Assembly (NCBI GenBank): GCA_963779415.1
Contig: CAVZYA010000002.1
Location: 1,280,001-1,344,000, forward strand
Length of the DNA: 64,000 bases
Source: an uncultured Acidobacteriota bacterium
GTDB lineage: Bacteria; Acidobacteriota; Thermoanaerobaculia; UBA5066
Reading direction: 5' to 3'
Shown: in pieces, positions 1 to 15,300 of the stretch
Layout: the number at the start of each line of letters is the position of its first letter
How positions within the stretch are numbered: position 1 is the stretch's first letter
The notes under the pieces: generated by a model
The model's database searches: none
What the model saw: only the letters and a program-made list of their open reading frames with translations
What the model was told of the DNA's origin: nothing
Program-made: the position numbers and the translations under genes

Positions 1-3000
1 TCGGCCCCGAATCTCTTCTCGTAGCTTCGCTGCCGGATGATCGCCCGGGACGGGGACGACAGGAAGTCGTAGGCAATTGCCTTGTCGACCCCACAGGCCC
101 CCCAGTCCTGGTCGTCGCACCCGACCGAGAGAGTCACCGGGTAGAGCCCGCCCGGCATCTGGGGGTCGTCGTTCCAGGAGGTCTGCAGCCTGTAACCGGC
201 GCGGTCGAATGGGACGCTCGTAAAGGGAAGAGTCTGCTGGGCAGAGAACGCCGTTAGAACGTTGGACGCCGCCTGCGTCGAGCTGGCCGATGTATATCCC
301 CAGCAGACGTTGTCGTATTTGTCCTTCAGGTAGTAAGAGTTGTAGATCGAGAAGGGCCCCGATGCGGTCTTCTGGGAGCCGTCGCCCTTGAGGCCTGCGG
401 GGTAGACGAGGTACCCGGTCCAGTACGAGAGGGAGTCCGGGCAGGGCGTGAAGTCGTAGTTCAGGCAGAGGAAGTGATCGGGCTTGCCGGGCTCAGGCCG
501 AACGGGGAAGTCCGATTCGCCGACCTCTTCCGAGCCGTCCGCGGCCAGCGTCGTCACACGAATGCCGAGCGTCTCGGCCTCGCCCCAGAGAGGCTGATAC
601 GGCCCGGGATCGGACCCGGTGGAGCCTTCGTAGAGGGACAGCGTCCCGAGCGTGTACTCGAACTCCTCGTTCAGGCCGGAGCCGCTCCCTCCCGCGGGAT
701 GCCAGACGAACGAGGCCTGGTCGCACTCCACCCGGTTTCCGTCCGGATCGAGGATGAGCATGCCGTGCGAGGGGCCGTCGACGCCCATGCTGACGAGGAC
801 CGGGTGGTTCGGGGTGCTGCCGTTCGCATCCTTGACGTCGATCCGAAGCCGGATCGTCTTCTCGATCCGGTGGCCGTGGATGCCGTCAGCCAGGTTGACG
901 TCGCCGTTCGGTGAAGTCTGGCCGGTTGACGGCGAGAGGTCGCTGAGCGAGACGCTGTAGGGCCCGGGCGCGACGGGGCCGGAGACGGCGACTTCGCTGA
1001 ACGTGGCCGAAGAGCAGCCGGTGATCGCAAAGGCGGGGGCGGAGACCGGGGCCGACGCCCTCTTCGCCGAGATGGCAGAGAAGGGCGCTGCCGAAGTAAC
1101 GGCCTTCAGAGGCGAGCCGGAGAGACCGGAATCGCTGCGCGAAAGAACCCGCCCGTCGGGCGCCAGGAGAATCCGCCCGCCTTCCTCCTGATGCTGGAAG
1201 CGCTCGAGCCGTCCGGCCGCAATGCCGAGGACGTTCTGATAGACGCCGGTGATCCGGATGTTCTGTCTTCCAACCGGGCGATAGCGGGGAATCGTGGCCG
1301 CCGCCGGCAAGGCCGTGGAGGTGCCAGCCATGGCGAATGCCGTCAGGCCGGAATCGTCCCTCCCCGCGACGAGGTTCGCGAAAAGCGGGTTTCCGAAGGC
1401 CGGATTGAACTGGACCTTTCCGGCCGCCGTGATCTTCGCTGAGACCTGAGCGATCCCGTCGAGCGTCGTCGAGGTTGCGGCGCTGGGGGTGAAGAGTGCG
1501 GCGCCCGTGTCGTCCGGGCCGTTCGCGACGGCGAACGTCACGTCCGCGCCGGCCACGGGCCAGCCCCGTGGGTCGAACATGACGGCCGTGGGTTTGAGCG
1601 TCGTGTTGACGGGAACCGTGTTGCCGCCGCCCGCGAGGGAGAAGACACGCCCTCCGACGGGTGCGGGTGCGACGGACGAAAGGCTGAACGTGAGCTGGTA
1701 GTCGCCTCGCCCGCGCGTCGTCTCGGCAGCGAGGATGTAAATGCCGGTCTCCGGAAGGATGGCATCGGAGAGGGCGGCGTTGTAGTCGATGCCCGGGACG
1801 TTGTCGAACGCCTGCAGGTTCGAGTAGATGAAGCCGTCGGGCGCGATGACTTCGATCTGCGGATCGAGGCTGGCCGGGCTCTCCCACGGAACGGAGCCGT
1901 CCACTCGCTGCATGACCACGTTGAGGTGAGTCCCGGCGGTGGCGGCGAAGTAGAAGTAGTTGTAGTCCGCGATGGCGTTCATGGGGTTGTCGCCCGTGAA
2001 CGTTCCCGTGACGGTTTGCCCCGGATAGATTCTCGTGGCCAGCTTGTGTTGGTCGGGCGTCAAAGCCGCGTACGTCTTCTGCGCCTGGTCCACCACGATC
2101 CACTTGTTGTTCGTCGAGTTGACGCCTGCGGGGTCCTTGGCCACCAGGTGGTAGATACCCGGCTGGAGACCGGCTGGAACGGCGAAACCCAGAGAGGTGA
2201 AATCCGCGTTCACGGTTCCGGTCAGGTTCTGGACCGGGCAATCCAACCCGGCGGAACAGAGAGGATGGAGGATGTCGGCGAGCGTGTAGACGGGGCCGCT
2301 GAAGGTGACCGTCGAGCCGGGCTCGAAGTTCGAACCCCAGAGCGCCGGTGTCGTGTCGCCAGGCACGACCCACCCCGGCGCCACGCCGGCGAGCGTGACC
2401 GGTGGTGTCGCGGCAACCGTCAGCGTCGCGGTCTTCGTCAGCCCGACGAATGTCGCGGAAATGGTCGTGGCGCCAGGACTCGAAGTGCTCGTGACGCCTA
2501 TGGGGAAATGGAAGACCGTACCCACCCGGACCGTCGTGATTGTGCCGCAAGGAATCGTTGGGCACGCCGTGACTGACGCTGCTGTCAGCCCGATGTCGGG
2601 GTTGCCTGAGGCAAGTGCGACGGAGTATTCATAGCCGAAAGGCGGCCAGCCATCGAAGAGGATCGCCCCCAACGAGGTGCCGCCCCGGGCGATCAAAGTC
2701 GGACTGATCCAGAAACTGGCCGTTCCGGCCGCGATGGTGGTGTTTCCCGTCTTCGTGACGCCGTTCAAGGTCGCCGTGACGGTCGCGACATACGCGGACG
2801 GGCTCCAGTCAGAGCACATGTCGAAGGATTTCCAGGTCTGCCCCGCCGGGATGGCCAGAGTAATGTTTGGAACGCATTCCGTACCGGCCTGACCTATGAT
2901 GTTGAAACTCGCCCCGCCTGAGGCCGTCATCTCGACGGAGTACCCTTCAGCGGGTGCCGCCGAGTTCAGCGTGACCGTTCCGAAGAAGAAGTGTCCGGCC

Positions 3001-6000
3001 TTGACACCCGAATCGAGCGTGACGCTGGCGAGCCCGAGTGGATCGACCGAGAGGGGCGCCGTCACCTGCACGCCCATGTACGTGGCCGTGATGGTCGCAG
3101 GCGTCGACGTCGAGACGGGCGTCGTCGTGACCGTGAATGACGCCGAAGTGTACCCGGAGGCGATCGTCACGGACGCCGGCACGGCGGCGACGGCGGGGAG
3201 GGACGACGACAGAGTCACGACCCCGCCTCCCGTCGGCGCCGGGCCGTTCAGCGAGGCAGTGCCTGCGACGCTGTTCCCGCCGGCGACCGCGGAAGGGGTG
3301 ATCGTGACTTGGACGAGCGTGGCCGGCGTGACGGTGAGCGGGGCCGAAAGCGTGACGCCGTTAAATGTGGCGGAGAGCGTTACAAGAGTCGGACCGGAGA
3401 CCCCCCGGGCGTAGAAGCTCACCGACGCCGTGGACGCTCCTGCCGCGACAAGCACACCGCTGGGAGGCTGGGCGACTGACGAATCCGAGCTGCTCAAACT
3501 GATGTTGGCGCCGCCGGCCGGGGCGGGCTGGTTCAAGGTGACCGTGGCGGTCACGGAGACACCGGAGGCGACGGACGGCGCGCTCAGATTAAACCCCGTC
3601 AAGCCGATTGGGGTCGGCGTAAGGGTGAGAAGGGCGGTCCTCGTCTCGTTCCTGTACCCGCCGGTCGCGGAGATCGTCGCGGAGCCCGTCGTGAGCGCCC
3701 CGTTCGTGGCGATCGGGAACGTCCCGGTGCTGGCCGCCGCGGGAATTGTCACGTTCGGCGGGAGGGTGGCGACGTTCGTGTCCGAGCTTGCGAGCGTGAT
3801 GACAAGGCCGGCGGCCGGTGCCTTTCCGGAGAGCCAGACGGTGCCGGTCGAGGGGGCGCCGGCGACGAGGCTGAAAGGGCTGAGGGTCATGGATGCGAGG
3901 ATGGCGGGATCAACCGTGAAGGTTCCGCTCTTGATGACGCCCCCGTACGTGCCTGAGATGGTGATGGCGACGGAAAGTCCCACCCCGACCGTAGGAATCG
4001 TAAACGAGGCCGAAGTTGAGTTGGCGGGTACAGTGACGCTGGCAGGCACGGAAGCCACCGTGGGGTCGGAGCTCGTGAGAGCAACGGTAAGGCCGCCGGC
4101 GGGCGCGGCCGTGGCCATCGTGACCGTGCCTGTGGCATTGAGTCCACCAGAAATGACCGCCGGAGTGACGGAGACACTGGTGAGGGTCGAAGGAAGCGGC
4201 GTCACGACGAGGGTGGCCCAGAGGCCCGACACGCTGTACCACGCCCCTATGGAGACGCTGGTCGTCGAAACGACAGGGTACGTCGTGACCGGAAAGCTGG
4301 CGCTGGTTGCCCCCGCGGGGATCGTGACGCCGGCCGGCACCGTGGCAACCGAGGTCCGGGAGCTACCGAGAGTAAGGTTGAGTCCACCGAATGGCGCATT
4401 GCCGTTTAACGTGACGGTGCCCGTACAGGCGTCGCCGGCCTGAACAGAAGATGGACTAAACGTGAGAGACGTCACCCGGGGCGCGAGGACGGTGAGGGTC
4501 GCCGTCAGGGGCGTCCCTCCGTCGCTCGAGATGATCGTCACGTTTGCATCGGTGGCGATAGCGGCCGTCGTGATCGGGAACGTGGCCGTGTTACTCCCGG
4601 CCGGCACCGTGACCGTCGCTGGAACGGACGCAAGAGAGCCATTGGAGGAGGTCAGCGAGACGGCATAGCCCGTGGCCGGAGCGATGCCCGAGAGCGTCAC
4701 GGTGCCGGTCGCGGGAGTGCCTCCAGTAACGCTCGTAGGCGAGAGGGAGATCCCTGTCAGGGACGGCTTCAGAACGGTCGCCGTCGTTACCGCGCTGGTG
4801 CCAGACGCCGTGGCCGTGACTGAGACGACCGTCGATGAGGCCACTGCCGTCGTCGAGCAGCTGAAGGTCGCCGACGTCCCGCCTGCCGGAACGAAGACCG
4901 TCGCCGGAACTGAAAGCGTGGCCGGATCCGAACTGCCCAGTGCAACAGTTACGCCTCCAGACGGGGCGAATCCCGTGAGATAGACCGTGCCGGTGAATGC
5001 GGTTCCGCCGATCTCGTTGAATAGCGTCAGAGAGCTCGGAGCCGACACCGCATTAACGACGAGAGGTGTCGAAAGGAGCTCGCGGCCGCCATAGGTTCCC
5101 GCAAGGACGACGGTCGCGGGCGCCGCGATCGAGGCGAGCGAACCGGTGACATATGCCCGCACGCTGCCGCTGGGAACGCTCACGCTCGCGGGCACGGAAA
5201 CGATGGACGGGTTGGAGCTGTAAAAGCTTGCAGAGCTTGCAACCGTCGTGGTGCCCGTCAGCGCCAGCGTGCCTTGGACCGTGCTGCTTGACTGGTACGC
5301 CGTCATGTCCTGCGAGGCGAGAAGGCTCGACACCGTGATCGCCCGCGAGCGCGAGACCCCCTGGTAGCTGGCAGTGACGATGACCGGCGTGACGGACCCT
5401 GTTCCCAGGACCGGGTAGACGTAGTTCGAGGAACAGCATGAATTGACCGTCACCGAAGCGGGAACCGGAACGGCAGTCGGATTCGAGCTCGAAAGGCTGA
5501 CCGCGGCTCCGCCGGCCGGCGCATTTGCGTTCAAGGTGACGCCGATGTCGGCCGTTGAGCCCGTCTTCCCATAAGGCACGAGACTCATCGTTGCAAGCGC
5601 TGGTGCCGGGGTGACCGTGAGTAGCGTCGACGCCCCGCCACTCGGAGCAGAGGCTGTGATCGTGGAGACAGTCGTCGTGGCAGCAGCCGCGACGGTCACC
5701 GGGAACGAAACGGCGAGAGCCCCTGCAGGCACGAGTACGGTCACCGGCATCGTGACCGTCGGGGCGCGGGAGCTCGTGAGATTGACGAGGAGGCCACCCG
5801 TCGGCGCCGGTCCGCTCAGAGAAAGAGTGCCGGTGAGATTGGCCGGGCCGACAGCGCTTCCTTTTTTCAGCGACACCGACACGACCGCCGGGTCCGGCGT
5901 GAGCATTATGTAGGCCTGGTTCGTTTCGCCGCCGCTCGTTGCGGACACAGTCACCCAGGTTGGCGTTGAAACCGCGGTGTACGTCACTGGAAAGGTGAGC

Positions 6001-9000
6001 ACGCGCTTGTTAGTTGCGACCGTGACCGACGCGGGCACGGGGAGGCTGACGCTGTTGCTCGAAAGCGTGAAGAGCTTCCCACCGGCAGGAGCCGAAGCAA
6101 CCAGCATAATCATCGCCGTAGATGTGCCGCTGCCGGACGCGACGGCCGGAAGCAGATCGAACGTGAAAGTCTGGATTGCGCCGAGGGCGATCGTACCGGC
6201 ATCGGTCGTCTGGCCATCGATTGCGGTCAGTACTGCGGTTGTGGCGGGCTGGAATCCGGCGTACGCGACTGTAAGCGTGTAGCTCCCCGGCGCCACGGGA
6301 AGAGCGAAGGATCCGGAGGCATCCGTACTGGCTATGGCCGCAATGCCGGTAGCGGAGACGCGTGCAGAAGGCAGGGCGACCCCTGTAGCAGAGACCGTGA
6401 CGAGTCCTGATATCCACGAGACGCCACCCCCCTGCGTGGGCGTAGGTGTCGGAGTTGGCGTCGCCGTCTGAGTGGGCGTCGCAGTCGGCGTGGGCGTAGC
6501 GGTCGGCGTCTGAGTCGGGGTGACGGTCGGGGTCGCCGTGGCGGTCGCTGTTGCCGTTGGCGTCCGGGTTGGCGTCGGCGTGATCGTCGGCGTGGGGGTT
6601 GGTGTTGGTGTTGGCGTGATTGTCGGAGTCCACGTGGGCGTCAGCGTGGGCGTTCGAGTCGGGGTCGGCGTGACGGTGGGTGTCCGCGTCGGCGTCGGGG
6701 TGAATGTCGGGACCTGAGTCGGTGTTGGCGTAATTGTCGGGGTCCGGGTTGGTGTCGGCGTGGTCGTCGGTGTAAATGTCGGTGTTGGCGTGACGGTAGG
6801 CGTCAGCGTGGGCGTTCGAGTCGGCGTGGGCGTGACGGTGGGCGTCGGAGTTGGCGTGAATGTGGGAGTCACCGCGGCCGTTGGAGTCGGCGTCGGGGTA
6901 GCCGTCGGGACCTGAGTCGGTGTCGGCGTGATTGTCGGGGTCCGGGTCGGCGTCGGCGTGATCGTCGGCGTGAAAGTGGGGGTCAACGTTCTGGTCGGCG
7001 TCCGGGTCGGCGTCCATGTCGGGGTGCGAGTCGGAGTCCGGGTTGGAGTCGGAGTTCGGGTCGGCGTGGGGGTCGGGGTGGGCGTCGGGGTCGGTGGAAC
7101 GGGCCTGACCGTGAGGGTGGCGGTCTTCGTGACGCCCGCGTAGACGGCGGAGATCACCGAAGTGGCGTTTGCTGCCACGGTAAGCGTCGTAACGGTGAAA
7201 GTCCCGGTCCTCGTGCCGGCGGGAAGGGTGAGCGCGGCAGGGACGGTAGCCGCGGCCGTGTTCGAGTTGGCGAGCGTGATGGTCGCGCCGGCCGGCGGAG
7301 CGGATCCCGTGAGCGTGATGGTCCCCGTCGACGGGGTGCCTCCGATGACGCTCGTCGGGCTTAGGACGACGGACGACAGCGCTGCCGCGCCGACGGTCAG
7401 AGTGGCCGTCTTCGTGACGCCGCCGCTGATGGCGGTGATCGTCACCGGGGTCGAGGACGCGACGCCCGTCGTCGTGATCGTCGCGGTGGCCGAAGTGGAG
7501 CCGGCCGGCATGACGGCGCTGGCCGGGATCGAAGCGACCGCCGTGTTGGAGCTGGAGAGCGCGACGGTCGCCCCGCCCGCGGGCGCGGGACCGTTCAAGG
7601 TCATCGTGGCCGTCGAGCTGTTCCCGCCCACGGGATTCGTCGGGCTCAGAGCGAGAGTGATGAAGGTCGGGACCGCCGTCACGGTGAGCACGGCGGTCTT
7701 CGTCACCCCGAGGTAGGCCGACGAGATGGTGGCGCTGGTGTTTGCCGCAACAGCAACGGTCGTGACGGTGAAGGTCGCGGTCTTCGTCCCGGCGGCGACG
7801 GTGACGGTGGCCGGAACGGTGGCTACCGACGTGTTCGACGAGGCGAGCGAGACGACGATCCCGCTGCCGGTCGCGTTGCCCGTGAGCGTGATCGTGCCCG
7901 TGGATGTCACGCCACCGAAGACGCTGGCGGGGTTGAGGGCGACGGAAGAGAGCGCGGCGGGCAGGATCGTGATCGGCGCCATGGGGCTCGTCCCCGCATA
8001 CGTCGCCGAGATCCCGACGGTGGACGGCGCCGTGACGCCGAAGGTCGTGATCGTGAAAGTCTTCGAGGTGGTTCCCGCGGCCACGGTAACGCTCGCCGGG
8101 ACGGTGGCGAGACCCGTGTCCGAGGAGGCGAGGCTGACCGCGACGCCGCCGGTCGGCGCGGAGCCGTTGAGCGTGACGGTGCCGGTGAGTGCGGTTCCGC
8201 CTCCGACGCTCGCGGCGGCCGTAACGCTTGCGAGGACGACGGAGTTTGTTACCGCGAGGGGCTTCGTGGCAGTCCGCCCGCCGGCCGAGGCCGTGATGTC
8301 GGAGGATGCCGGGGCCGCGACTGCCGTCGTCGAGATCGTGAAAGTCGCCGTCTTCGTCGCCGCGGCGACCGTGACGCTGGCCGGGACCGTCGCAACGGCC
8401 GTATTGGAGCTGGTGAGCGTGACGACCGTGCCGCCCGTCGGCGCGTTGCCGTCGAGCGACACGGCGCCCGTGGTCGAGGCGCCGCCCACGACGCTCGCCG
8501 CGCTGAGCGTGACGGATGCGACGGCTGCCGACGGCGTCACCTCCAGCGGCGCCTGCCGGACGGTTCCGGCGAGGGTGGCCGAGATGGTGGCCGTGGCGGT
8601 TGTCGCCACGGTCTTTGCCGTTACCGTGAAGGCTCCCGAAGAGGCCCCCGCGGCGACGGTCACGCTTGCGGGCACCGTGGCCACCGCCGTGTTGGAAGAG
8701 GAGAGGCTCACGACGAGGCCGCCTGCGGGGGCGACGGCATTGAGCGAGACGGTGCCCGTGACGGTGGTTGCCGCGAGCGCCGCCGGCGCCGAAAGGGTCA
8801 GTCCGCTCAGGGCTGGCGAAGGGGTGACATCGAGGGCGGCCGTCCGGGTGTCGGCTCCGAGGGTCGCCGAAAGAGTGACTGTCTGGATGCTGGAAACCGG
8901 CAGGGTCGAGACGGTGAAGCCGGCCGCGGAGGCGCCCTGGGGAACCGCCACCGTGGCGGGAAGCGTTGCCACCGCCATGTTGGAGCTGCCGAGCGTGACG

Positions 9001-9182
9001 AGTGTGCCGCCCGCCGGCGCAGGACCGTTGAGCGTCACGGAACCGAGCAGTTCGGATCCGCCCGTGACGTTCGAGGGATTGACGGCGAGGGACGAAAGCG
9101 TCTGACTTGCAGCAGGGAAGGCGGCGAGCAGACAGACGAGCAACGCCAGCGGAGAACCCCGTCTTCCCGTGCTCATGCCCAT
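1..9182 (-). CDS. Giant secreted surface protein/adhesin (at least 3060 aa, runs off the window): signal peptide, about 20 ~95-aa Ig-like repeats, Thr-Pro linker, carboxypeptidase-regulatory-like, IPT/TIG-like, PPC-like and Big_1-like domains
   Basis: ATG at 9182 with GAGGAG RBS; [27 protein letters not shown] signal peptide; repeats like [31 protein letters not shown]...[10 protein letters not shown]. Same frame checked at 7142, 6422 and 2. No stopped ORF from this start appears in the track. The plus-strand V/A/T-rich ORFs are its antisense shadows. Confidence 0.92.
6434..7100 (-). repeat. Low-complexity (Thr-Pro)n linker of about 220 codons inside the giant protein
   Basis: Runs of ggcgtcggcgtg/ggtgttggcg on the plus strand encode TPTPTxTP on the minus strand; internal duplicated blocks (e.g. 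gacctgagtcggtg at about 6711 and 6910). Confidence 0.95.
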
Positions 9183-9373
9183 GACTCTCCTCGGAAAGGT
9201 CGCTTGACTCATAAAGTGCGGCTCCGGGACCGCCTTGACCAGATGCACCTGAATCAGGACCAGGGGGGTCAAGACGAGCGGCTCGCCGGCACTCTCTCTA
9301 TTGTGGAGTGGGCTTCTCCGAGGGTTCCCGGGATGAAGGGCGACGCGATGGCCTGCTTGAATGACGGCTGCGT

Positions 9374-9398
9374 GGAACTCAAAATGCCACGGCTCGTC
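9374..9398 (+). promoter_or_regulatory. Possible ECF-type promoter (GGAAC-N16-CGTC) upstream of ECF sigma 1
   Basis: ggaactcaaaatgccacggctcgtc fits the AAC-N16-CGT ECF consensus; if real it would imply a later start (GTG 9420). Confidence 0.3.
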
Positions 9399-9911
9399 AT
9401 GACGAACGACAACGGGACGGTGAGGACGGGTCCGGAAACCGCCGAGGCGCTATTTCTCGACCGCGCGCAGGTGGAGCGGTTGATCGGTCTGGCGTTCCGG
9501 CGGTTCGGGATCTCGCGGGCGGACGCCGAGGAGGTGCTGGCCGAGACGCTCCTCGAGCTGTCGGCGAGCGATGCCCTCGTCAAGAGCCCGAAGGGCTTTG
9601 CGTTCCGCGTTTTCTACGTCCGTTGCTGCAGATGGCTCGAGCGCGAAGGGCGCTCGCGTGTCGAGACGGCGGGGCTGGATCCTTCCGCGGGACGGCCCGT
9701 GGCATACGCCGGCCCGGGACCGGAGTGGACGCTGGCGCTGAGACAGGGTTTCGCGCGGCTGTCACCTGTCTGCCGGCGGCTCCTGACGGGCTACTACGTC
9801 GAAGGCTTGTCGCTGAAGGAGACCGCGGAGACGACGGGACACTCGTCGAAACAGGTCTGGAAGCGGCTGGATGACTGCCTGAGGAGGCTGAAGAGATGCC
9901 TCGAAGCGTGA
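9399..9911 (+). CDS. ECF RNA polymerase sigma factor (paralog 1); start uncertain
   Basis: Region 2 ([12 protein letters not shown]) and region 4 ([37 protein letters not shown]); overlaps the downstream anti-sigma gene. Confidence 0.88.
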
Positions 9912-12193
9912 GCGACGCCCACCTCGGAGAATCGGTGCTCCTGCGACTGGCCGTAGGCGATTTGGACCAGGCCGAGCGGCAAGGCGCCGAGCGGCACCTC
10001 TTGGCCTGCGACACGTGCCGCGAGGCATTCCGGGCTTCCGAACGTCTCGACGGCGCACTTCGTTCCGCCGGCCCGGCACTGTTCGACGGCGGCAGCGAGA
10101 CGATGACGCTTCCCGCGGCGGACCCGTTCGCGCGGCGGCCGGAGGCGCGCCGCTTCTCCATGACGGCGAAGTCGGAAACTGTATCGCTGGCCGAGGAGGC
10201 CGTGCATGCGGTCCCCGAAGCGCGGGAGATGGCTACGCGGCTGGGCGCCGCTTTCGAGGATGACGGTGCCCGCGAAGCGGCCCTTGCGGCGCTCGACCTC
10301 GACGCCATTCGCGATCGTCTCGCCCTCGCCTACGCACTCGATGGCAGGTTCGAGCGCGTCGAGCAGGACGCGACACTCTCGGGGCGCCTGGCGGCTGCAG
10401 CCCTCGACCGGATCTCGAAAGAAGCGCCGAGGTCTGCCGGAGGAGTCGCTGAGCGAACGGTGCCGCTCGCGGATCTGAGGGGGAAGGCGCTCCTTCTCTC
10501 CGGAGCCGCGAATCTCTTCGGTGGCGGCTTTGCCGAGGTGGAAGTGCGGCTTCAAACGGCGTGGCGGGCGTTCGGAAAAGGACAGGCGAGCGAGCCGCTC
10601 CTCGCGCGAACGGAGACTCTCGAAGCGCTCCGGCGGGTCGTCGAAGGGCGATGGAAAGAAGCCGAAGCCCTGGCGGCCCGGGCCGGCGAGACCTTCGCGT
10701 TCACCGGCGCCGAGGCGGATGCGGCACGGGCCACTCTCGCATCGGGCCTCGCCGCGTGGGGAGAGGGCCGAAACCGCGCGGCGCTGACGTTGCTGCGGAA
10801 AGCCGCCCTCGGCTTTCAAAGGGCGGAAGCGTGGGGCGGCTTCTCGATAGCGGCTTGTGCAGCCGCGCTCTGCCTCGCCGCGGACGGACAGGTTGCGGAA
10901 TCGCGCCGCGCCTTCTGCGACCTGCGCCGCCGGAAGGCCCGCCGCGCCCCGCTCGCCGAGCGTCTGTTCGTCCGGGAGACGGAGCGGATCGCGCTGCTCC
11001 TCGTCAGGGAGCCGGGGAAGAAGAAGGAAGCGACATTCCGCTTCTCGCCCAGCGACATCCTTCTTCTTCGCGCTGCCTCATTCCTCGCGGACGGCATCGT
11101 CAGTGCGGCGCGAGAAGGCGGAGAGAAGCTGGAGGTATCTCTTCGGGCCCTCGACGAACATCCCGCCCGCGCCTTCGCTTTTCTATACACCTGCCAGAAG
11201 GCAGCGCTGCTCGTCGTCCAGGATCCGCTTCGAGCTCTTGAGGTCTCGCGGCGCATCTTCTATGAGGCACAGTTCCTTGAAGAGATCGGCGCAGCCGGCC
11301 GCGAATTACGCGCGGCGCTCGGCCAAGTAACGCAAGCCGAGGGGAAACTCTTGGAATCAACGGCCCTGAATATGCTCGGCTATCCCCTAGAAGCCCGTGT
11401 CGCCGCAGCGAGGGCATGCGAGTTGTTCGGTCGCGGAGACGACGCCGGCTTCGGGAGGGCTCTGGCAAATTATTTCGAGGGCTCGGCCGCACTCTTTGCG
11501 AAAGAGTTCGCGGCGGGTGAGCGACTTCTAAAGAAGGCCATACGAGTCTTCTCCGCATACGACCAGACGAACCTCAGGGCGCGTGCTGAGGGAACTCTGG
11601 GAACGTTGTATCTTTACCGAGGAGACGGGCGACGGGCACTTCCTTTTCTTGAACGTGCCATCGACCTCTTTGACTCGATCGAGGACGAGCGTTTTCTTGC
11701 AGCAGTTCTGACAAACCGGGGGGCGGCGCTCTCTCGCCTAGGTCGGCTTGACGAGGCTCGTACTTGTTACACGCGGGCTCTGATGGTTTCGCGAAGAACG
11801 CAGTCCCAAGCCCAGATCGCGATCATTCGCTCCGGCCTCGCGCTGATCGATATCAATCGCGGCGAATATGCTCGAGCCCTTCAGGCATTTCGAGAGCTCT
11901 CCAGTGAAGAGCGAAGGGAAGGCCGGATGCAGCTCGCCTTCGTTTCCGATCTCTACACAGCCGAATGCCTCGGACGACTCGGACGCAACGATGAGATGGC
12001 TGAAGTCATTCGGAACGTTCGCGCGGAGCGGCGGGGACATTTCGTGGTCTCTCCACTCGCCCTGGCCGAGTTGTTCGCCTGTCTTGATCAGGGAGAACTC
12101 AATGCGAACTTCATTGCTCACGTTCGCTCTTATTTGGAGGACGAAGCCAACGGTATCCAACGCGAGTACCGGCGGTTCAAAGTCGCGGGCTGA
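9896..12193 (+). CDS. zf-HC2 anti-sigma domain + tandem TPR-module protein (765 aa)
   Basis: HLLACDTC (HxxxCxxC) N-terminus; TPR-like helices (AAVLTNRGAALSRLGRLDEARTCYTRAL); no TM segment evident; C-terminal half closely resembles 13258..14673. Confidence 0.88.
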   Translation: MPRSVSDAHLGESVLLRLAVGDLDQAERQGAERHLLACDTCREAFRASERLDGALRSAGPALFDGGSETMTLPAADPFARRPEARRFSMTAKSETVSLAEEAVHAVPEAREMATRLGAAFEDDGAREAALAALDLDAIRDRLALAYALDGRFERVEQDATLSGRLAAAALDRISKEAPRSAGGVAERTVPLADLRGKALLLSGAANLFGGGFAEVEVRLQTAWRAFGKGQASEPLLARTETLEALRRVVEGRWKEAEALAARAGETFAFTGAEADAARATLASGLAAWGEGRNRAALTLLRKAALGFQRAEAWGGFSIAACAAALCLAADGQVAESRRAFCDLRRRKARRAPLAERLFVRETERIALLLVREPGKKKEATFRFSPSDILLLRAASFLADGIVSAAREGGEKLEVSLRALDEHPARAFAFLYTCQKAALLVVQDPLRALEVSRRIFYEAQFLEEIGAAGRELRAALGQVTQAEGKLLESTALNMLGYPLEARVAAARACELFGRGDDAGFGRALANYFEGSAALFAKEFAAGERLLKKAIRVFSAYDQTNLRARAEGTLGTLYLYRGDGRRALPFLERAIDLFDSIEDERFLAAVLTNRGAALSRLGRLDEARTCYTRALMVSRRTQSQAQIAIIRSGLALIDINRGEYARALQAFRELSSEERREGRMQLAFVSDLYTAECLGRLGRNDEMAEVIRNVRAERRGHFVVSPLALAELFACLDQGELNANFIAHVRSYLEDEANGIQREYRRFKVAG

Positions 12194-12217
12194 CGGGCAG
12201 TTGGCTCGAAGTGGAGA

Positions 12218-12322
12218 TCAGGCCACCGACTCGAGGTGCAGCCGGCCTTCGGCTTTTTCGATTCCGGGGTTGCAGCTCAAACGGACGGTGAAGGTCGCGC
12301 CTTCGGCCGGAATCTCGGACAT
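12218..12322 (-). CDS. 34-aa ORF MSEIPAEGATFTVRLSCNPGIEKAEGRLHLESVA, homologous to the C-terminus of 12386..12808
   Basis: AAGGAGG RBS 5 nt before ATG; shared pattern EG-T-T--L---PG-E--E--LH with the upstream gene. Confidence 0.5.
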   Translation of the reverse strand: MSEIPAEGATFTVRLSCNPGIEKAEGRLHLESVA

Positions 12323-12385
12323 GGAGCCCTCCTTCGCCTTGGGAGTGCGATGGCGGGCCCTGAATTGACCTCCGCGCCGGGCGGG

Positions 12386-12808
12386 TCAGGCGCGCGGCGC
12401 GATGTGGAGGGTGGCCTCGGTCTCTTCGGTGCCGGGGGCGAATCGAAGCTGGAGGGTGAGGGTCTCGCCTTCCGGGGAGAGGCCCGGGAGGGCGATGCGG
12501 AGGGGGAGGAGGAACCCTCGTCCGGCATCGAGCCTCGTCGGGGGGGAAAGCATGATGAGCTGACGGGTCTGGCGGGACCGCTCGGCGCCGGAGGCGTCGA
12601 TGACGAGCGCTTCCAGGAGCGGGCCGTTCGCGATCGTGGCGTTCCACGGGACGTCGCTGCGGTTCCGGATCTCGAGGTGGAGGAGGGCACCTCCGCCGGT
12701 ACTCGCAACGTCTTCGACGTAAAGGGTCTCCGGGACACGGAGGCTGATCGAGAGCGGCAGATATGGCCGTGCCGCCGACGCGGCCCTGCGGTCCCACAGG
12801 GCGGTCAT
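12386..12808 (-). CDS. 140-aa beta-rich Ig-like protein, possibly BsuPI (intracellular proteinase inhibitor)-like
   Basis: GGAG RBS; LHLEIRNRSDVPWNATIANGPLLEALVIDASGAE resembles the BsuPI pattern (judged by eye only). Confidence 0.6.
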   Translation of the reverse strand: MTALWDRRAASAARPYLPLSISLRVPETLYVEDVASTGGGALLHLEIRNRSDVPWNATIANGPLLEALVIDASGAERSRQTRQLIMLSPPTRLDAGRGFLLPLRIALPGLSPEGETLTLQLRFAPGTEETEATLHIAPRA

Positions 12809-12929
12809 CGAGGCGTCTCCGCGTTCACGGATCTATGGCTCTCGGTCCGTTTCTTCGACATGAGTCTCAGTCGCACGGGCACAAATCCCCCCGCGCGCGA
12901 TTCTCTTCACGCTTCAGCTCTGTTACGCC

Positions 12930-13085
12930 TCAGCCGACCGGAACGAGGCCGCTTCCCGTCGAGCCGACCGGAACGAGGCCGCTTCCCGTCGAGCCGACCG
13001 GAACGAGGCCGCTTCCCGTCGAGTAGTTGAAAAAGCCGCCGAAGTTCCAGAACAGGTTCAGAAATGCGCCGAAGAAACCGATCAT
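12930..13085 (-). CDS. 51-aa repeat peptide MIGFFGAFLNLFWNFGGFFNY(STGSGLVPVG)3; candidate signalling propeptide
   Basis: GAGGAGG RBS 4 nt before ATG 13085; three in-frame identical decapeptides end exactly at TGA (12930-12932); below the ORF-track size cutoff. Confidence 0.85.
   Translation of the reverse strand: MIGFFGAFLNLFWNFGGFFNYSTGSGLVPVGSTGSGLVPVGSTGSGLVPVG
12933..13022. repeat. Perfect 30-bp tandem repeat x3 (gccgaccggaacgaggccgcttcccgtcga)
   Basis: Directly visible; no spacers; unit length is a multiple of 3 and lies within the peptide ORF. Confidence 0.98.
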
Positions 13086-13257
13086 AGATCCTCCTCTTGA
13101 AGGTCTTTCACGGCCCTTCGTCCGGAACGAAGGGACTGATGTGGCCTTCTAATGACTCAGACGGCGGCCATCGCAAGTTTGACCCCCTCTATGCGGGGGA
13201 GATGTCGAAAACCTGAAGGCTGCCTTAGAAGGCGGCCAAAAAAAGCTGAAAAAAAAG

Positions 13258-14673
13258 TTAGCTGGCCAGCCGAAGCGGACAGTATTCGCGCTGGACGCCG
13301 TTGGCTTCGTCCTCGAGATACGCCCTGACGTGAGCGACGAGGTCGGCGTCGACGGCGCCCTGGTCGAGGCAGGAGAAGAGTTCCTCGATGGCCGCGGACT
13401 GGCGGAACGGGCTCTCGCTTCGCTGGCCTCGCAGGACGAGAACCATCTCGAACATCTCGTCCTCGCGGCCCAGGCGGCCGAGGCATTCGGCAACGAAGAG
13501 GTCCGAGATGAAGGCTTGGGCCGCCCAGCCCAACGCGCGCTCGTCCCTTGCGATCTCTTCGTAGGACTTCAGAGCGCGTGTGAACTCTCCCCGCATCATG
13601 TCGATCTGGGCGAGGCCGACGCGAATCTGTGTCAGGTGCGCCCTAGATCCGAGTTTTCGGGCCATCCCCAGCGCGCGCGCGAAGCTCGCCTTCGCTTCAT
13701 CGAAGCGCCCGAGACGGGAGAGCGAAATTCCCCGGTTGTTGAGCGTCGCCGTCAGCGGGCGCGCGTCTTCAACTGGATCCAGTAACTCGATCGCGTGATC
13801 GAGATAGGGCAGGGCGCGCTTTTCGTCGCCGCGCTGCACGTACAGCAACCCGAGAGCCGATTCGGCCCGACCCATCAGGCTGTCCTGGCCGAATTCGGCG
13901 AAGACCTTGAGAGCTTTCTTCAGGAGCCGCTCGCCCGCGACGTAGTCCTTGGCGAAGCTGGCCGCCGAGCCTTCATAGTAGTCGGCGAGAGCGAGGGAGA
14001 AGCCCGGGTCGCCAGCAGCCCGGAACTTCTCGCGAGCATCCGTCGCGGCGACGCGCGCCTCGAGGGGATAGCCGAGCATGTTCTGCGCCTGCGATTCGAG
14101 CAGCTTCGCCTCGGCCTGGACGGTCTCGCGCGGGGCAGGAGTGGCGAGGCGGGTGTCGAGGTTTGCGTCCATCAGGGACTGCGCTTCGTCGTAGACGCGA
14201 CGCGAAAGCTCGAGGGCGCGGAGCGGGTCCTGCGGCACCAGGGCGTTCGCCTTCTGGCAGGCGTAAAGAAGCGCGAAGCCGCGGGAGGGGTTGCCGTAGA
14301 GGGCGCGGAGGGCCGCGTCGAGGGCGTCATCGCTTTCGCGGGCGGCAGCGACGATCTCCTCGGCCAGCCCGTCGGCGGCGGAGGCGCTGCGGTAGATCTC
14401 GTCGAGCTTGGGAACGCGCGGCTGGAAGGCGACGGTCTTTCCGCCGAAGTCGGGGATGGCGGGAAGGTCGTCTCCCTCGAGAATGGCGTCGAAGGCCTCT
14501 TCCTCGCGGACGGCCTCCACCAGCTCGCCCAGCTCCCGGAGCCGGACGTCGCAGAGGCGGCACCCTTCGGAGAGGTGCTTGCGGCACTCGTCCAGCCCTT
14601 CGGCCTCCCGCCCGGCGGCGAGGTTCAGAAGGTCCGCCTCGCTGGGGTGGCTCGCCGAGACTAGACGAGGCAT
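13258..14673 (-). CDS. Zinc-finger anti-sigma domain + single TPR-module protein (471 aa)
   Basis: Start [12 protein letters not shown] parallels the paralog's [12 protein letters not shown]; HLSEGCRLC zinc motif; TPR helices; overlaps the stop of sigma 2. Confidence 0.88.
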
Positions 14674-15245
14674 TGCCGCATCCTCTTCAGGCATTCCTGA
14701 ACGCGCTTCCAGATCGTCTTCGACGAGTAGCCCGCCTTCTCGGCCGTCTCGGCCAGGGAACACTCGTCGACGCAGTAGCAGCGGATCACCTTCTGGCACT
14801 TGTCGCCGATCCGGCGGAAGGCGCCGGTGACGGCGTTGATCTTCCGGATCTTTTCGGCCTGCCGCTCGCGCTCCTCGGGATCGTAGATGGCGCTGCGGTA
14901 GATCCCGTCGGGGTCGAGTTCCGTCGTCCGGGCGCGGTTGCGCGTGCGCGCCTCGGCGACGTTCTGCGCCTGATGGAGGAACGCCGCGCGGAGGTAGGCC
15001 TTCGGGTCGCGGACGCGCGGGCTCTGCGCGATGACCTTGAGGAAGACGCTCTGGGCGGCGTCCTCGCATTCCTCGCGCGTCAGGCCGAAGCGGACGATGC
15101 CGGCGGCGATGAGACGCGGCCGATAGTGGGAGTTCAGCTCCTCCCAGTTCCACTGGGCGGGGACAGAGGTTCTCAGAGGACCGGTGAGGCCATAGCCTCC
15201 GGATCCCTGCACCTCGGGACGGGTCTCTTCGAACTTGCGAGACAT
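14661..15245 (-). CDS. ECF RNA polymerase sigma factor (paralog 2)
   Basis: [13 protein letters not shown] (region 2), [37 protein letters not shown] (region 4); start placed downstream of the sigma70-like promoter. Confidence 0.88.
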
Positions 15246-15270
15246 CCCTATATCTGGACCTGCCGTGTGA

Positions 15271-15300
15271 AGCATATCTCCCTGTTTTTTCAAGAGTCAA
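15271..15300 (-). promoter_or_regulatory. Sigma70-like promoter TTGACT-N18-TATGCT for the sigma 2 operon
   Basis: Reverse complement of agtcaa (15295-15300) and agcata (15271-15276), in an AT-rich patch. Confidence 0.55.

Follow-up and report, generated by a model that had tools for sequence, protein, structure and literature searches.

Why does a perfect 30-bp sequence stand three times in a row, in frame and directly ahead of a stop codon, in the DNA of an uncultured Acidobacteriota bacterium, and what could the product of such a repeat be doing? The repeat lies in a stretch of 64,000 nucleotides, hereafter the window (contig CAVZYA010000002.1 of assembly GCA_963779415.1, lineage Thermoanaerobaculia, UBA5066), for which an earlier note, made from the letters alone, had proposed a hidden gene for a 51-residue peptide. 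Comparison with related genomes indicates that this small gene belongs to a family of its own and accompanies the genes of a sigma factor of the extracytoplasmic function (ECF) type and a tetratricopeptide repeat (TPR) protein. By analogy with systems known so far only from Gram-positive bacteria, its product may be a peptide signal of that kind in uncultured Acidobacteria.

The peptide gene and its tandem units

As read from the minus strand, the list of open reading frames (ORFs) and the orthologous ORFs, the small peptide gene occupies positions 12930..13085 (-) and comprises 51 codons and a TGA, with the ATG at 13085-13083 and the stop at 12932-12930. A Shine-Dalgarno sequence, GAGGAGG (13090..13096, minus strand), precedes the ATG by 4 nt, and the 51-aa product consists of a Phe-rich hydrophobic N-terminus of 21 residues, MIGFFGAFLNLFWNFGGFFNY, followed by three copies of STGSGLVPVG. 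Tandem Repeats Finder reports the perfect repeat that codes for these units at 12932..13023 (minus strand; period 30, 3.1 copies, 100% matches, 0 indels, score 184), and the number of nucleotide differences among the three units is 0. The in-frame ORF with its ribosome-binding site (RBS) and three units running into the stop, as earlier proposed, is thus confirmed by the strand read, the ORF list and the repeat finder, and the accompanying remark that the leader has no classical Sec n-region also holds: seven of its 21 residues are Phe, none is Lys or Arg, and the N-terminus has no basic residues.

Taken by itself, the peptide is nearly without relatives in the databases. As a single query it returned no homologue from a collection of 5.8 billion proteins; it has no Pfam family and no usable atlas match, and an Rfam search of the whole window gave 0 families. 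Among 41 related genomes, one of them unpublished (G030), there was a single significant match (E 4.5e-4), in a genome of the same genus (G007); the remaining matches, all with E > 0.05, were taken as chance. The corresponding position in G007 is occupied by an ORF of 53 aa, which has the same RBS, carries three units that are not identical and ends in GGTVPVG and a stop.

Orthologous loci were located by using as an anchor the next gene downstream, which encodes a 140-aa protein (12386..12808, minus strand). This anchor occurs in 33 of the 175 genomes of the order, exclusively in the genera here called g1 (6/7 genomes) and g4 (26/29), and a profile of the 140-aa protein matched 4 of 401 sampled Acidobacteriota genomes, again in g1 and g4 only. 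Of 30 related loci from two genera of Thermoanaerobaculia, 28 carry an ORF of 17-56 aa in the space between the TPR and 140-aa genes, each with a GGAGGA- or AGGAGG-type site ahead of it, while the two loci without a complete peptide ORF are interrupted by contig ends, a partial repeat tail being visible in one of them. Members of the family share a Phe-rich hydrophobic N-terminus, a variable linker and 1-4 C-terminal units of 5-10 residues ending in P-[IV]-[GSN]; the N-terminus is conserved (M[DE]FLFAFF), and the linker between it and the units is poorly conserved. A short form of 17-21 aa with a single unit, such as MDFLFALIEFFRTTPIVG or MVSFFALIIILVCAGGTVPLG, is found in 10 of the 28 loci, and a long form of 44-56 aa mostly carries 2-4 units (e.g., ISSTPIG, MGVGPIS, SGIGPIG, ASVGPIG, SGYGPIN), with one locus (L015) having the long form with one unit only. 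The last five residues, or core, vary by species: STPIG, VGPIS, VGPIG, YGPIN, NGPIG, LVPVG and TVPVG have been found. In one g4 genome the peptide ORF (L023:1902-2054, minus strand) continues for about 17 residues beyond ...RTTPIV, an extension that may reflect a lost stop or a sequencing error in a long-read assembly.

A profile built from 17 of the 28 peptides, namely the 16 multi-unit long forms and that of L015, retrieved 53 further members of 42-53 aa from public metagenome proteins, all of them unnamed or called 'hypothetical protein' and none with a Pfam family. By the criterion of the last five residues, 42 of these database members have three units and 11 have two, and in 49 of the 53 these residues are identical across all units. 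One member (P0053) carries a single TGVGPIS (GVGPIS) unit followed by three TGYGPIN (GYGPIN) units and looks like an intermediate of unit replacement or turnover.

Because an in-frame, RBS-preceded ORF occupies the same slot in 28 of 30 loci and recurs in 53 database relatives, the 51-aa ORF is, judged by sequence comparison, a true gene, translated into a small protein whose family is undescribed. That such a gene, unannotated so far, accounts for the repeat is further borne out by the conservation of ORF, RBS, frame and a stop directly after the last unit in those 28 loci, and by purifying selection on the units. The opposing explanation, a chance ORF over a non-coding tandem repeat, may appeal to the many spurious ORFs that a GC-rich genome yields. 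However, RBS-preceded ORFs of 12-90 aa that end in P-[IVL]-x?-G(G) number just seven in the whole genome (8.72 million strand-bases), only two of them with a hydrophobic N-terminus and one of those two being the ORF in the window; together with the conserved frame, RBS and stop, the database relatives and the synonymous excess described below, this background makes an accident extremely improbable.

Selection is seen in comparisons between units of the same gene. In the 16 multi-unit genes, 107 differences between units fall in synonymous codon pairs and 38 are non-synonymous, against an expected synonymous share of 0.29 for unit comparisons (binomial p ~3e-29, the pairs not being independent of one another). 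In the last five residues of the units the count is 51 synonymous versus 2 non-synonymous codon differences, from the same genes and with the same dependence among pairs; the units of G007 differ at residue-changing sites only. Every unit is under purifying selection, with the strongest constraint on its last five residues. Since gene conversion would also erase silent differences, unit identity is therefore kept at the protein level, and the synonymous excess marks the repeat architecture as old and selected. Zero differences between units were found in this genome alone among the 16 multi-unit genes, so that a fresh amplification is to be assumed here only: the recent amplification proposed in the earlier note stands for this genome, and does not extend to the other multi-unit genes, in 14 of 15 of which the units have diverged, mostly at synonymous sites. 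Independent of function, the locus is a clean case of selection that holds tandem peptide units identical while their codons drift.

The sigma factor, the TPR protein and a promoter-like element

Overlooked in the earlier note was the neighbourhood, in which the peptide gene is the constant partner of an ECF sigma/TPR pair and possesses its own conserved promoter-like element. The sigma factor gene (14661..15293, minus strand; start codon uncertain) matches the sigma70-ECF model TIGR02937 with 51.6 bits (cutoff 42.9), and its stop is overlapped by 4 nt (14661-14664) by the start of the gene for a soluble 468-aa protein (13258..14664, minus strand) with a Cys/His domain, a linker and TPRs, as seen in Pfam and an AlphaFold2 (AF2) model; it is a putative anti-sigma factor and peptide sensor. 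This protein has TPR matches in Pfam, an N-terminal C-x2-H-x4-C-x2-C motif, no helix-turn-helix (HTH) family match in its N-terminal domain in family searches, and no segment resembling a transmembrane (TM) helix (maximum Kyte-Doolittle value 1.29). Its model (mean predicted local distance difference test, pLDDT, 87.4) shows an N-terminal Cys/His domain built of three helices, then a disordered linker and lastly a long superhelix of TPRs with about 17 paired helices after residue 87, which describes architecture only. In Foldseek searches, the best match of this model was the TPR domain of LGN/Pins in complexes with partner peptides or proteins (E 3e-8, target-normalised TM-score, TMt, up to 0.76), followed by designed TPRs, Rap pheromone receptors (E 1.5e-5 to 1e-4, TMt 0.5-0.6) and kinesin light chain (KLC); the matched domains of LGN/Pins, Rap and KLC come from structures with a peptide or a partner protein bound. 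The sigma factor and the Cys/His-TPR protein are both complete in 10 of about 22 evaluable loci.

Transcription signals were sought by aligning the 170 nt upstream of the peptide ORF across all 28 loci. The alignment contains an invariant GGGGGTCAAA, a gap of about 14-15 nt and then (C/T)GTCT(T/G)AGT, ahead of GGAGGA and the ATG; in the window the corresponding two-block element, GGGGGTCAAA-N14-CGTCTGAGT, lies at 13155..13187 (-). It has one match in the whole 4.36-Mb genome; across the order, 23 of 175 genomes give 24 matches in total, of which 23 lie at the peptide locus, while the reversed control gave 0; the off-locus match, on contig 13 of G022, has no peptide-like ORF downstream and was taken as chance. 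From its two-block form and its AAC/CGTC-type letters we take the element to be ECF-like; it resembles an ECF promoter, with no assignment of -35 and -10 bases. A sigma-70 promoter scan of 12200-13600 found 0 sites.

Between the TPR gene and this element, most g4 loci in the alignment have a clean CGGCCGCC-TTCG-GGCGGCCG hairpin with a T-run. The window has, in the position of the terminator of its relatives, an imperfect GC hairpin followed by a T-rich run (13206..13237, minus strand), which contains a stem mismatch and is unreported by the terminator scan. As each of the 28 loci has a terminator-like hairpin, the element and GGAGGA ahead of the ORF, the peptide gene appears from the sequence to have its own transcription unit. 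The 5' untranslated region (UTR) of the window also contains a hairpin, CCCTTCG..CGAAGGG (13114..13134, minus strand), as part of a minimum free energy (MFE) fold of -22.1 kcal/mol (z -1.88, not significant alone). Relatives have a hairpin of different sequence at the same UTR position, as judged by eye in the alignment; RNAalifold on 19 g4 5' UTRs returned no convincing shared hairpin (-0.46 kcal/mol, no covariation), the hairpins of two subgroups being out of register.

Public sequencing data touch upon relatives of this genome. Each of 12 runs contains at most 0.10 of the sampled words, this strain being present in none, and the contigs assembled from them are relatives at about 85-97%. In one RNA library, a metatranscriptome, contigs of a relative with about 90% similarity connect the 5' portions of the 140-aa and peptide genes and carry a different repeat segment between the two; they are compatible with expression and co-transcription in that relative, weakly so, as carry-over of DNA is also possible. 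This run, from one study, gives no cover over 13151-13400, which is not evidence for a transcript start. Additionally, the loose ends of two DNA contigs from relatives, translated by eye, read ...TIPIG and ...GPVG-stop, and these relatives therefore retain the same C-terminal motif.

The pairing is not confined to a single locus. The Cys/His-TPR (ZAS-TPR) family is present in 84 of the 175 genomes of the order, a tally that includes one unpublished genome (G025; no particular claim depends on it or on G030), and in 14 of its 24 genera; g4 genomes have 1-6 matches each, with at least two in 28 of 29. The regions downstream of 25 further family members were examined, and a small RBS-preceded ORF begins about 200 nt after the TPR stop in 5 of 5 regions of one set and in 16 of 17 g4 regions of another, whereas g16 contributed two regions with doubtful 19-aa ORFs and g2 one region without an ORF. 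The TPR proteins of these paralogous modules are 37-41% identical. Their small ORFs again have a hydrophobic N-terminus and P-[IVL]-G in the C-terminus, as in AGVSPIG x3, INAGPIG x3, VTSMPVQG x2, MFNALFSFILECCTGTGPIGG, MDASTLIDLALSLLGLTTSPSDTLLNDETDPGRTTKPIG and MDALTLLLLLLGLGTTTPDSGDPTDPGRGGTPIGG. Of 22 paralogous regions, 18 have an ORF that ends in the strict form P-[IVL]-x?-G(G), compared with a background of 0.0008 per region (derived from the seven ORFs in 8.72 million strand-bases); three others have near variants (PAGG, GPIGA, KPIGP) and one region is without the motif. Nothing else speaks as strongly for joint action of peptide and TPR protein as this recurrence of one sigma/TPR module with one P-I-G peptide across diverged paralogues.

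Modules of class B carry the same GGGTCAAA block. Class B peptide genes are followed, at a distance of about 270 nt downstream, by a second GGGTCAAAG...CTGTCC block (L142:718-750; L143:774-806; L144, reverse strand, 771-803), after which no convincing small ORF was found, and which could drive a small RNA or a more distant gene.

Likeness to known systems and a candidate mechanism

Small genes beside TPR receptors are familiar from PlcR-PapR, NprR-NprX and AimR-AimP, which share this format. In the broader RRNPP(A) group of Bacillota and phages, exemplified by Rap-Phr, Rgg-SHP and ComR-ComS/XIP, the small gene likewise adjoins that of a TPR protein located in the cytoplasm, activity resides in a short C-terminal peptide, as it would here, and precursors go down to 17-23 aa (PMC13361665, accessible part). 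ComS, for example, has 17 aa with a C-terminal signal of 7 aa, SHP signals read DI[I/L]IIVGG, and the receptors carry 6-9 TPR motifs, according to the same portion of that source (PMC13361665). Furthermore, as the excerpted text of a second source describes, RRNPPA systems are prevalent quorum-sensing systems in Bacillota, and Phr propeptides include tandemly duplicated pheromones, comparable to the tandem units, the would-be signal, within one precursor seen here (PMC11343458). As far as the excerpts of these sources go, the two also share several paralogous receptor-peptide pairs per genome with pair-specific peptide sequences; in the present case a small gene adjoins the TPR gene in 28 of 30 loci and 21 of 22 paralogous modules.

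Unlike RRNPP(A) systems, the module belongs to Acidobacteriota rather than Bacillota; its receptor has a Cys/His anti-sigma-like N-terminus coupled to an ECF sigma factor instead of an HTH domain or phosphatase surface; it lacks a Sec signal and a linked PptAB/Opp-type transporter; its TPR protein has no detected sequence homology to RRNPP receptors beyond a generic TPR fold match; and it contains an extra conserved gene for a 140-aa beta-sandwich protein. Since the output domain differs and the taxon is another one, the module is therefore not filed as a member of RRNPP, while by analogy it may work like RRNPP signalling.

On the side of the sigma factor, the closest likeness is with ZAS anti-sigma pairs (RsrA-SigR, ChrR-RpoE, RshA-SigH), in which an ECF sigma gene is also translationally coupled to that of a soluble helical-domain protein of the H-x3-C-x2-C type. 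The window's own protein differs in having a variant motif, H-x4-C-x2-C, matched by no model. Soluble anti-sigma factors are controlled by conformational change (redox), partner switching or mechanosensing, and a large TPR sensor with a dedicated co-encoded peptide is absent from the modes reviewed in the accessible part of that source (PMC8999054). The resemblance to ECF42, a sigma factor with a fused C-terminal TPR (PMC7826278, PMC8999054), is superficial: one g4 subclade has the sigma-2 half joined directly to the TPR domain in a single 509-aa ORF, but these fusions are without sigma region 4 and derive by deletion from a two-gene pair, whereas ECF42 proteins keep a complete sigma core.

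From the RRNPP-like layout, with its cytoplasmic TPR protein, adjacent mini-gene, pair-specific peptides, paralogous pairs and tandem units, we therefore propose, as a tentative reading that we favour without full conviction, that the peptide is the ligand of the adjacent soluble TPR anti-sigma factor and controls the ECF sigma factor, with positive feedback at the promoter of the peptide gene. Activity would reside in the C-terminal unit, either freed by proteolysis or exposed at the free C-terminus; the cytoplasmic TPR domain encoded next to it would bind this unit in its groove, which would alter how the N-terminal anti-sigma domain holds the sigma factor. The sigma factor, or a paralogue, could then transcribe the peptide gene from the two-block element, resulting in a switch that is controlled by the peptide and reinforces itself. 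With tandem copies, each transcript would yield more of the identical ligand; new unit variants would arise, amplify, as has happened in this genome, and later diverge at silent sites. The larger claim, that of a peptide-autoinducer system outside the Gram-positives with orthogonal paralogous channels (classes A-D) in one Thermoanaerobaculia cell, is rather doubtful. A prediction of the complex of TPR protein, 140-aa protein and peptide scored 0.01 against a mark of 0.32, without controls, and speaks neither for nor against binding.

Several observations weigh against this proposal. The TPR fold match is generic, with LGN outscoring Rap, and the profile of the 468-aa protein found only generic TPR proteins and no RRNPP protein among PDB sequences. 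Its N-terminal domain matches no anti-sigma model, and we therefore infer the label 'anti-sigma' from gene coupling and the motif. The peptide has no Sec-type basic region at its N-terminus; no conserved exporter, importer/permease or protease lies within about 6 kb of the gene in the window or the four loci annotated, the search for transporters having been confined to linked ones; no copy of the two-block element was seen upstream of the sigma gene; and the 140-aa protein has no explained role.

A complication comes from the loci in which the sigma factor is reduced. In 10-12 of the roughly 22 evaluable loci it has lost region 4, with its sigma-2 half remaining, and the TPR protein is without the zinc-finger domain, missing its first ~50 residues; in some of these loci sigma-2 and TPR form the fused ORF mentioned above (reduced loci include L052:4118-5688, L053:4151-5680 and L069:3891-5629). 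There are two deletion sizes, and reduced and complete forms occur inside one close clade (TPR proteins 81-90% identical), which points to at least two independent losses. Yet peptide, promoter block and 140-aa gene are retained in all reduced loci, from which it follows that the coupling to this particular sigma factor is dispensable and that the constant core consists of TPR domain, peptide and 140-aa protein. Genomes with reduced loci hold 1-3 full-length paralogous sigma factors that are 39-45% identical.

The same cytoplasmic setting could also accommodate an uncleaved intracellular small protein, acting as a multivalent adaptor whose repeated P-[IV]-G tails would bind one TPR domain or several (an anti-anti-sigma factor or scaffold) or as a membrane-associated mini-protein with its hydrophobic N-terminus as anchor. 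All partners look cytoplasmic, the TPR and 140-aa proteins being free of TM-like and signal segments, export machinery is not linked, the N-terminus is itself conserved, which a mere pro-region would not need, and the unexported ComS precursor is reported to act inside the cell in the available part of the source (PMC13361665). On the other hand, single-unit forms of 17-21 aa are so common (10 of 28 loci) that multivalency seems unnecessary, the linker that joins the N-terminus to the units shows poor conservation, and constraint is strongest on the last five residues of the units rather than on spacing or total length, all of which leaves this explanation unlikely.

The 140-aa protein, the wider neighbourhood and the significance of the module

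The gene for the 140-aa protein follows the peptide gene throughout this module class, as established by homologue searches, starting 41-170 nt after the peptide ORF across loci. The protein has no Pfam or NCBIfam family, and its atlas leads are below 0.9. Its AF2 model (pLDDT 82) is a beta-sandwich that resembles many Ig-like domains equally well, the intracellular proteinase inhibitor BsuPI (3isy, Z 8.8) among them; these modelled likenesses are undiscriminating, so that no function can be assigned. Invariant His, Glu and Arg residues are present, and TM-like or signal segments are lacking. Each genome has 1-2 matches, and the paralogues at L041-L045 have no peptide ORF upstream and no sigma or TPR gene within the fetched stretches.

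The close spacing of the two genes raises the question of whether the ORF might be a regulatory upstream frame, functionless as a peptide, whose translation (e.g., through stalling at Phe codons or at the Pro-containing end) tunes the 140-aa gene. Phe-rich leaders of attenuators such as pheL are well known, and here Phe accounts for 7 of the first 21 codons, with the 140-aa gene at 41-170 nt and no terminator detected between. The absence of the latter cuts both ways, since an attenuator would have a terminator-like hairpin with a T-run between ORF and 140-aa gene, and the terminator scan found none on the minus strand in 12200-13600, this interval included. Moreover, no homologue of the 140-aa gene follows the paralogous peptides, which have the same format, and the retention of unit residues despite synonymous drift, together with species-specific cores, shows that selection acts on what the peptide's sequence is rather than on its being translated at all. 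Such a role is accordingly very unlikely.

The repeated layout is also reminiscent of multi-copy precursors such as cyanobactin PatE and yeast alpha-factor. As in multi-core precursors of ribosomally synthesised and post-translationally modified peptides (RiPPs) and eukaryotic multi-copy pheromone precursors, several identical short copies stand behind a common N-terminal region and copy number varies among relatives; unlike them, there is no co-encoded maturase, protease or exporter, no recognisable cleavage signals flank the units, and single-unit forms are common. A precursor of a secreted or modified product, RiPP- or bacteriocin-like, would have the N-terminus as leader and the units as cores, with the TPR protein as scaffold or regulator and the 140-aa protein or an unlinked enzyme as maturase, or the 140-aa protein as immunity or carrier protein. 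The conserved N-terminus M[DE]FLFAFF with 1-4 identical cores fits this layout, which is not specific to RiPPs, as does a conserved 140-aa protein with invariant residues and without known function. In many g4 loci, additionally, the module is followed, after the 140-aa gene, by a gene for an AurF-like di-iron protein of 303-317 aa with two ExxH motifs (L076:6488-7441; L048:8628-9542).

Against this stands, first, that the Pfam scores of the AurF-like protein (AurF being a di-iron N-oxygenase) are 22.9 and 17.5, below the cutoff of 29.6, and that the corresponding gene of this genome (G000:C1:1491291-1492106, 75% identical) is on another contig than the module. Second, RiPP families (radical-SAM, YcaO, lanthipeptide, ATP-grasp, peptidase-ABC exporter and others) were not recognised within about 6 kb in the window or at L048, L053, L063 and L076, in agreement with the earlier note, which had seen no modifying enzyme adjacent to the gene. 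Third, paralogous modules have peptides but no 140-aa homologue, and the fold of the 140-aa protein is a plain beta-sandwich. A RiPP-like precursor is thus an improbable identity for the gene, and the ligand of the TPR sensor remains the preferred one.

The annotated neighbours include PPDK, hydrolases, RNase II, the AurF-like protein, FG-GAP proteins and an oxidoreductase. In one genome (G003), a HepT/MNT-type (nucleotidyltransferase) toxin-antitoxin pair lies between the 140-aa and AurF-like genes (L048:7872-8490, minus strand). In the window, a convergent paralogous pair on the plus strand (9204..12193) consists of an ECF-like sigma gene (9204-9911, start uncertain) and a gene for a 765-aa H-x3-C-x2-C/TPR protein (9896-12193), with an overlap of 16 nt (9896-9911); the latter protein scores 17.6 bits against zf-HC2, below the cutoff of 22.2, and the pair is without a peptide gene of its own. 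At 9260-9300 (+), inside the listed sigma ORF, the sequence GGGGGGTCAAGA resembles the first block of the two-block element, and the true start of this sigma gene may lie further downstream, with a related promoter. Upstream of it, two adjacent genes (7162-9105, plus strand; 184 and 459 aa) have no Pfam or NCBIfam family. An open frame of 3090 aa (3-9272, minus strand) overlaps plus-strand ORFs at 2896-3414, 3430-4443, 7162-7716 and 7726-9105, which have the pattern of third-position G+C (GC3) of real genes, and is probably an antisense artefact of high G+C.

Literature searches of full texts, with supplementary files outside their scope, found no description of ECF sigma/TPR/peptide modules. 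Peptide-TPR signalling is treated as a hallmark of Bacillota, and mini-peptides tied to ECF sigma factors and TPR proteins in soil and sediment Acidobacteria would join two fields; if the proposal is true, it would add a fourth control mode for soluble anti-sigma factors and peptide quorum sensing in Acidobacteriota. The parts are compact, comprising a sigma factor, a TPR protein, a promoter block of about 35 bp and a peptide of 5-7 residues, and their natural variants, which may be orthogonal, make them attractive for synthetic circuits. For the organisms themselves, the module would give a testable handle on cell-cell or self-signalling in an abundant, hard-to-culture phylum.

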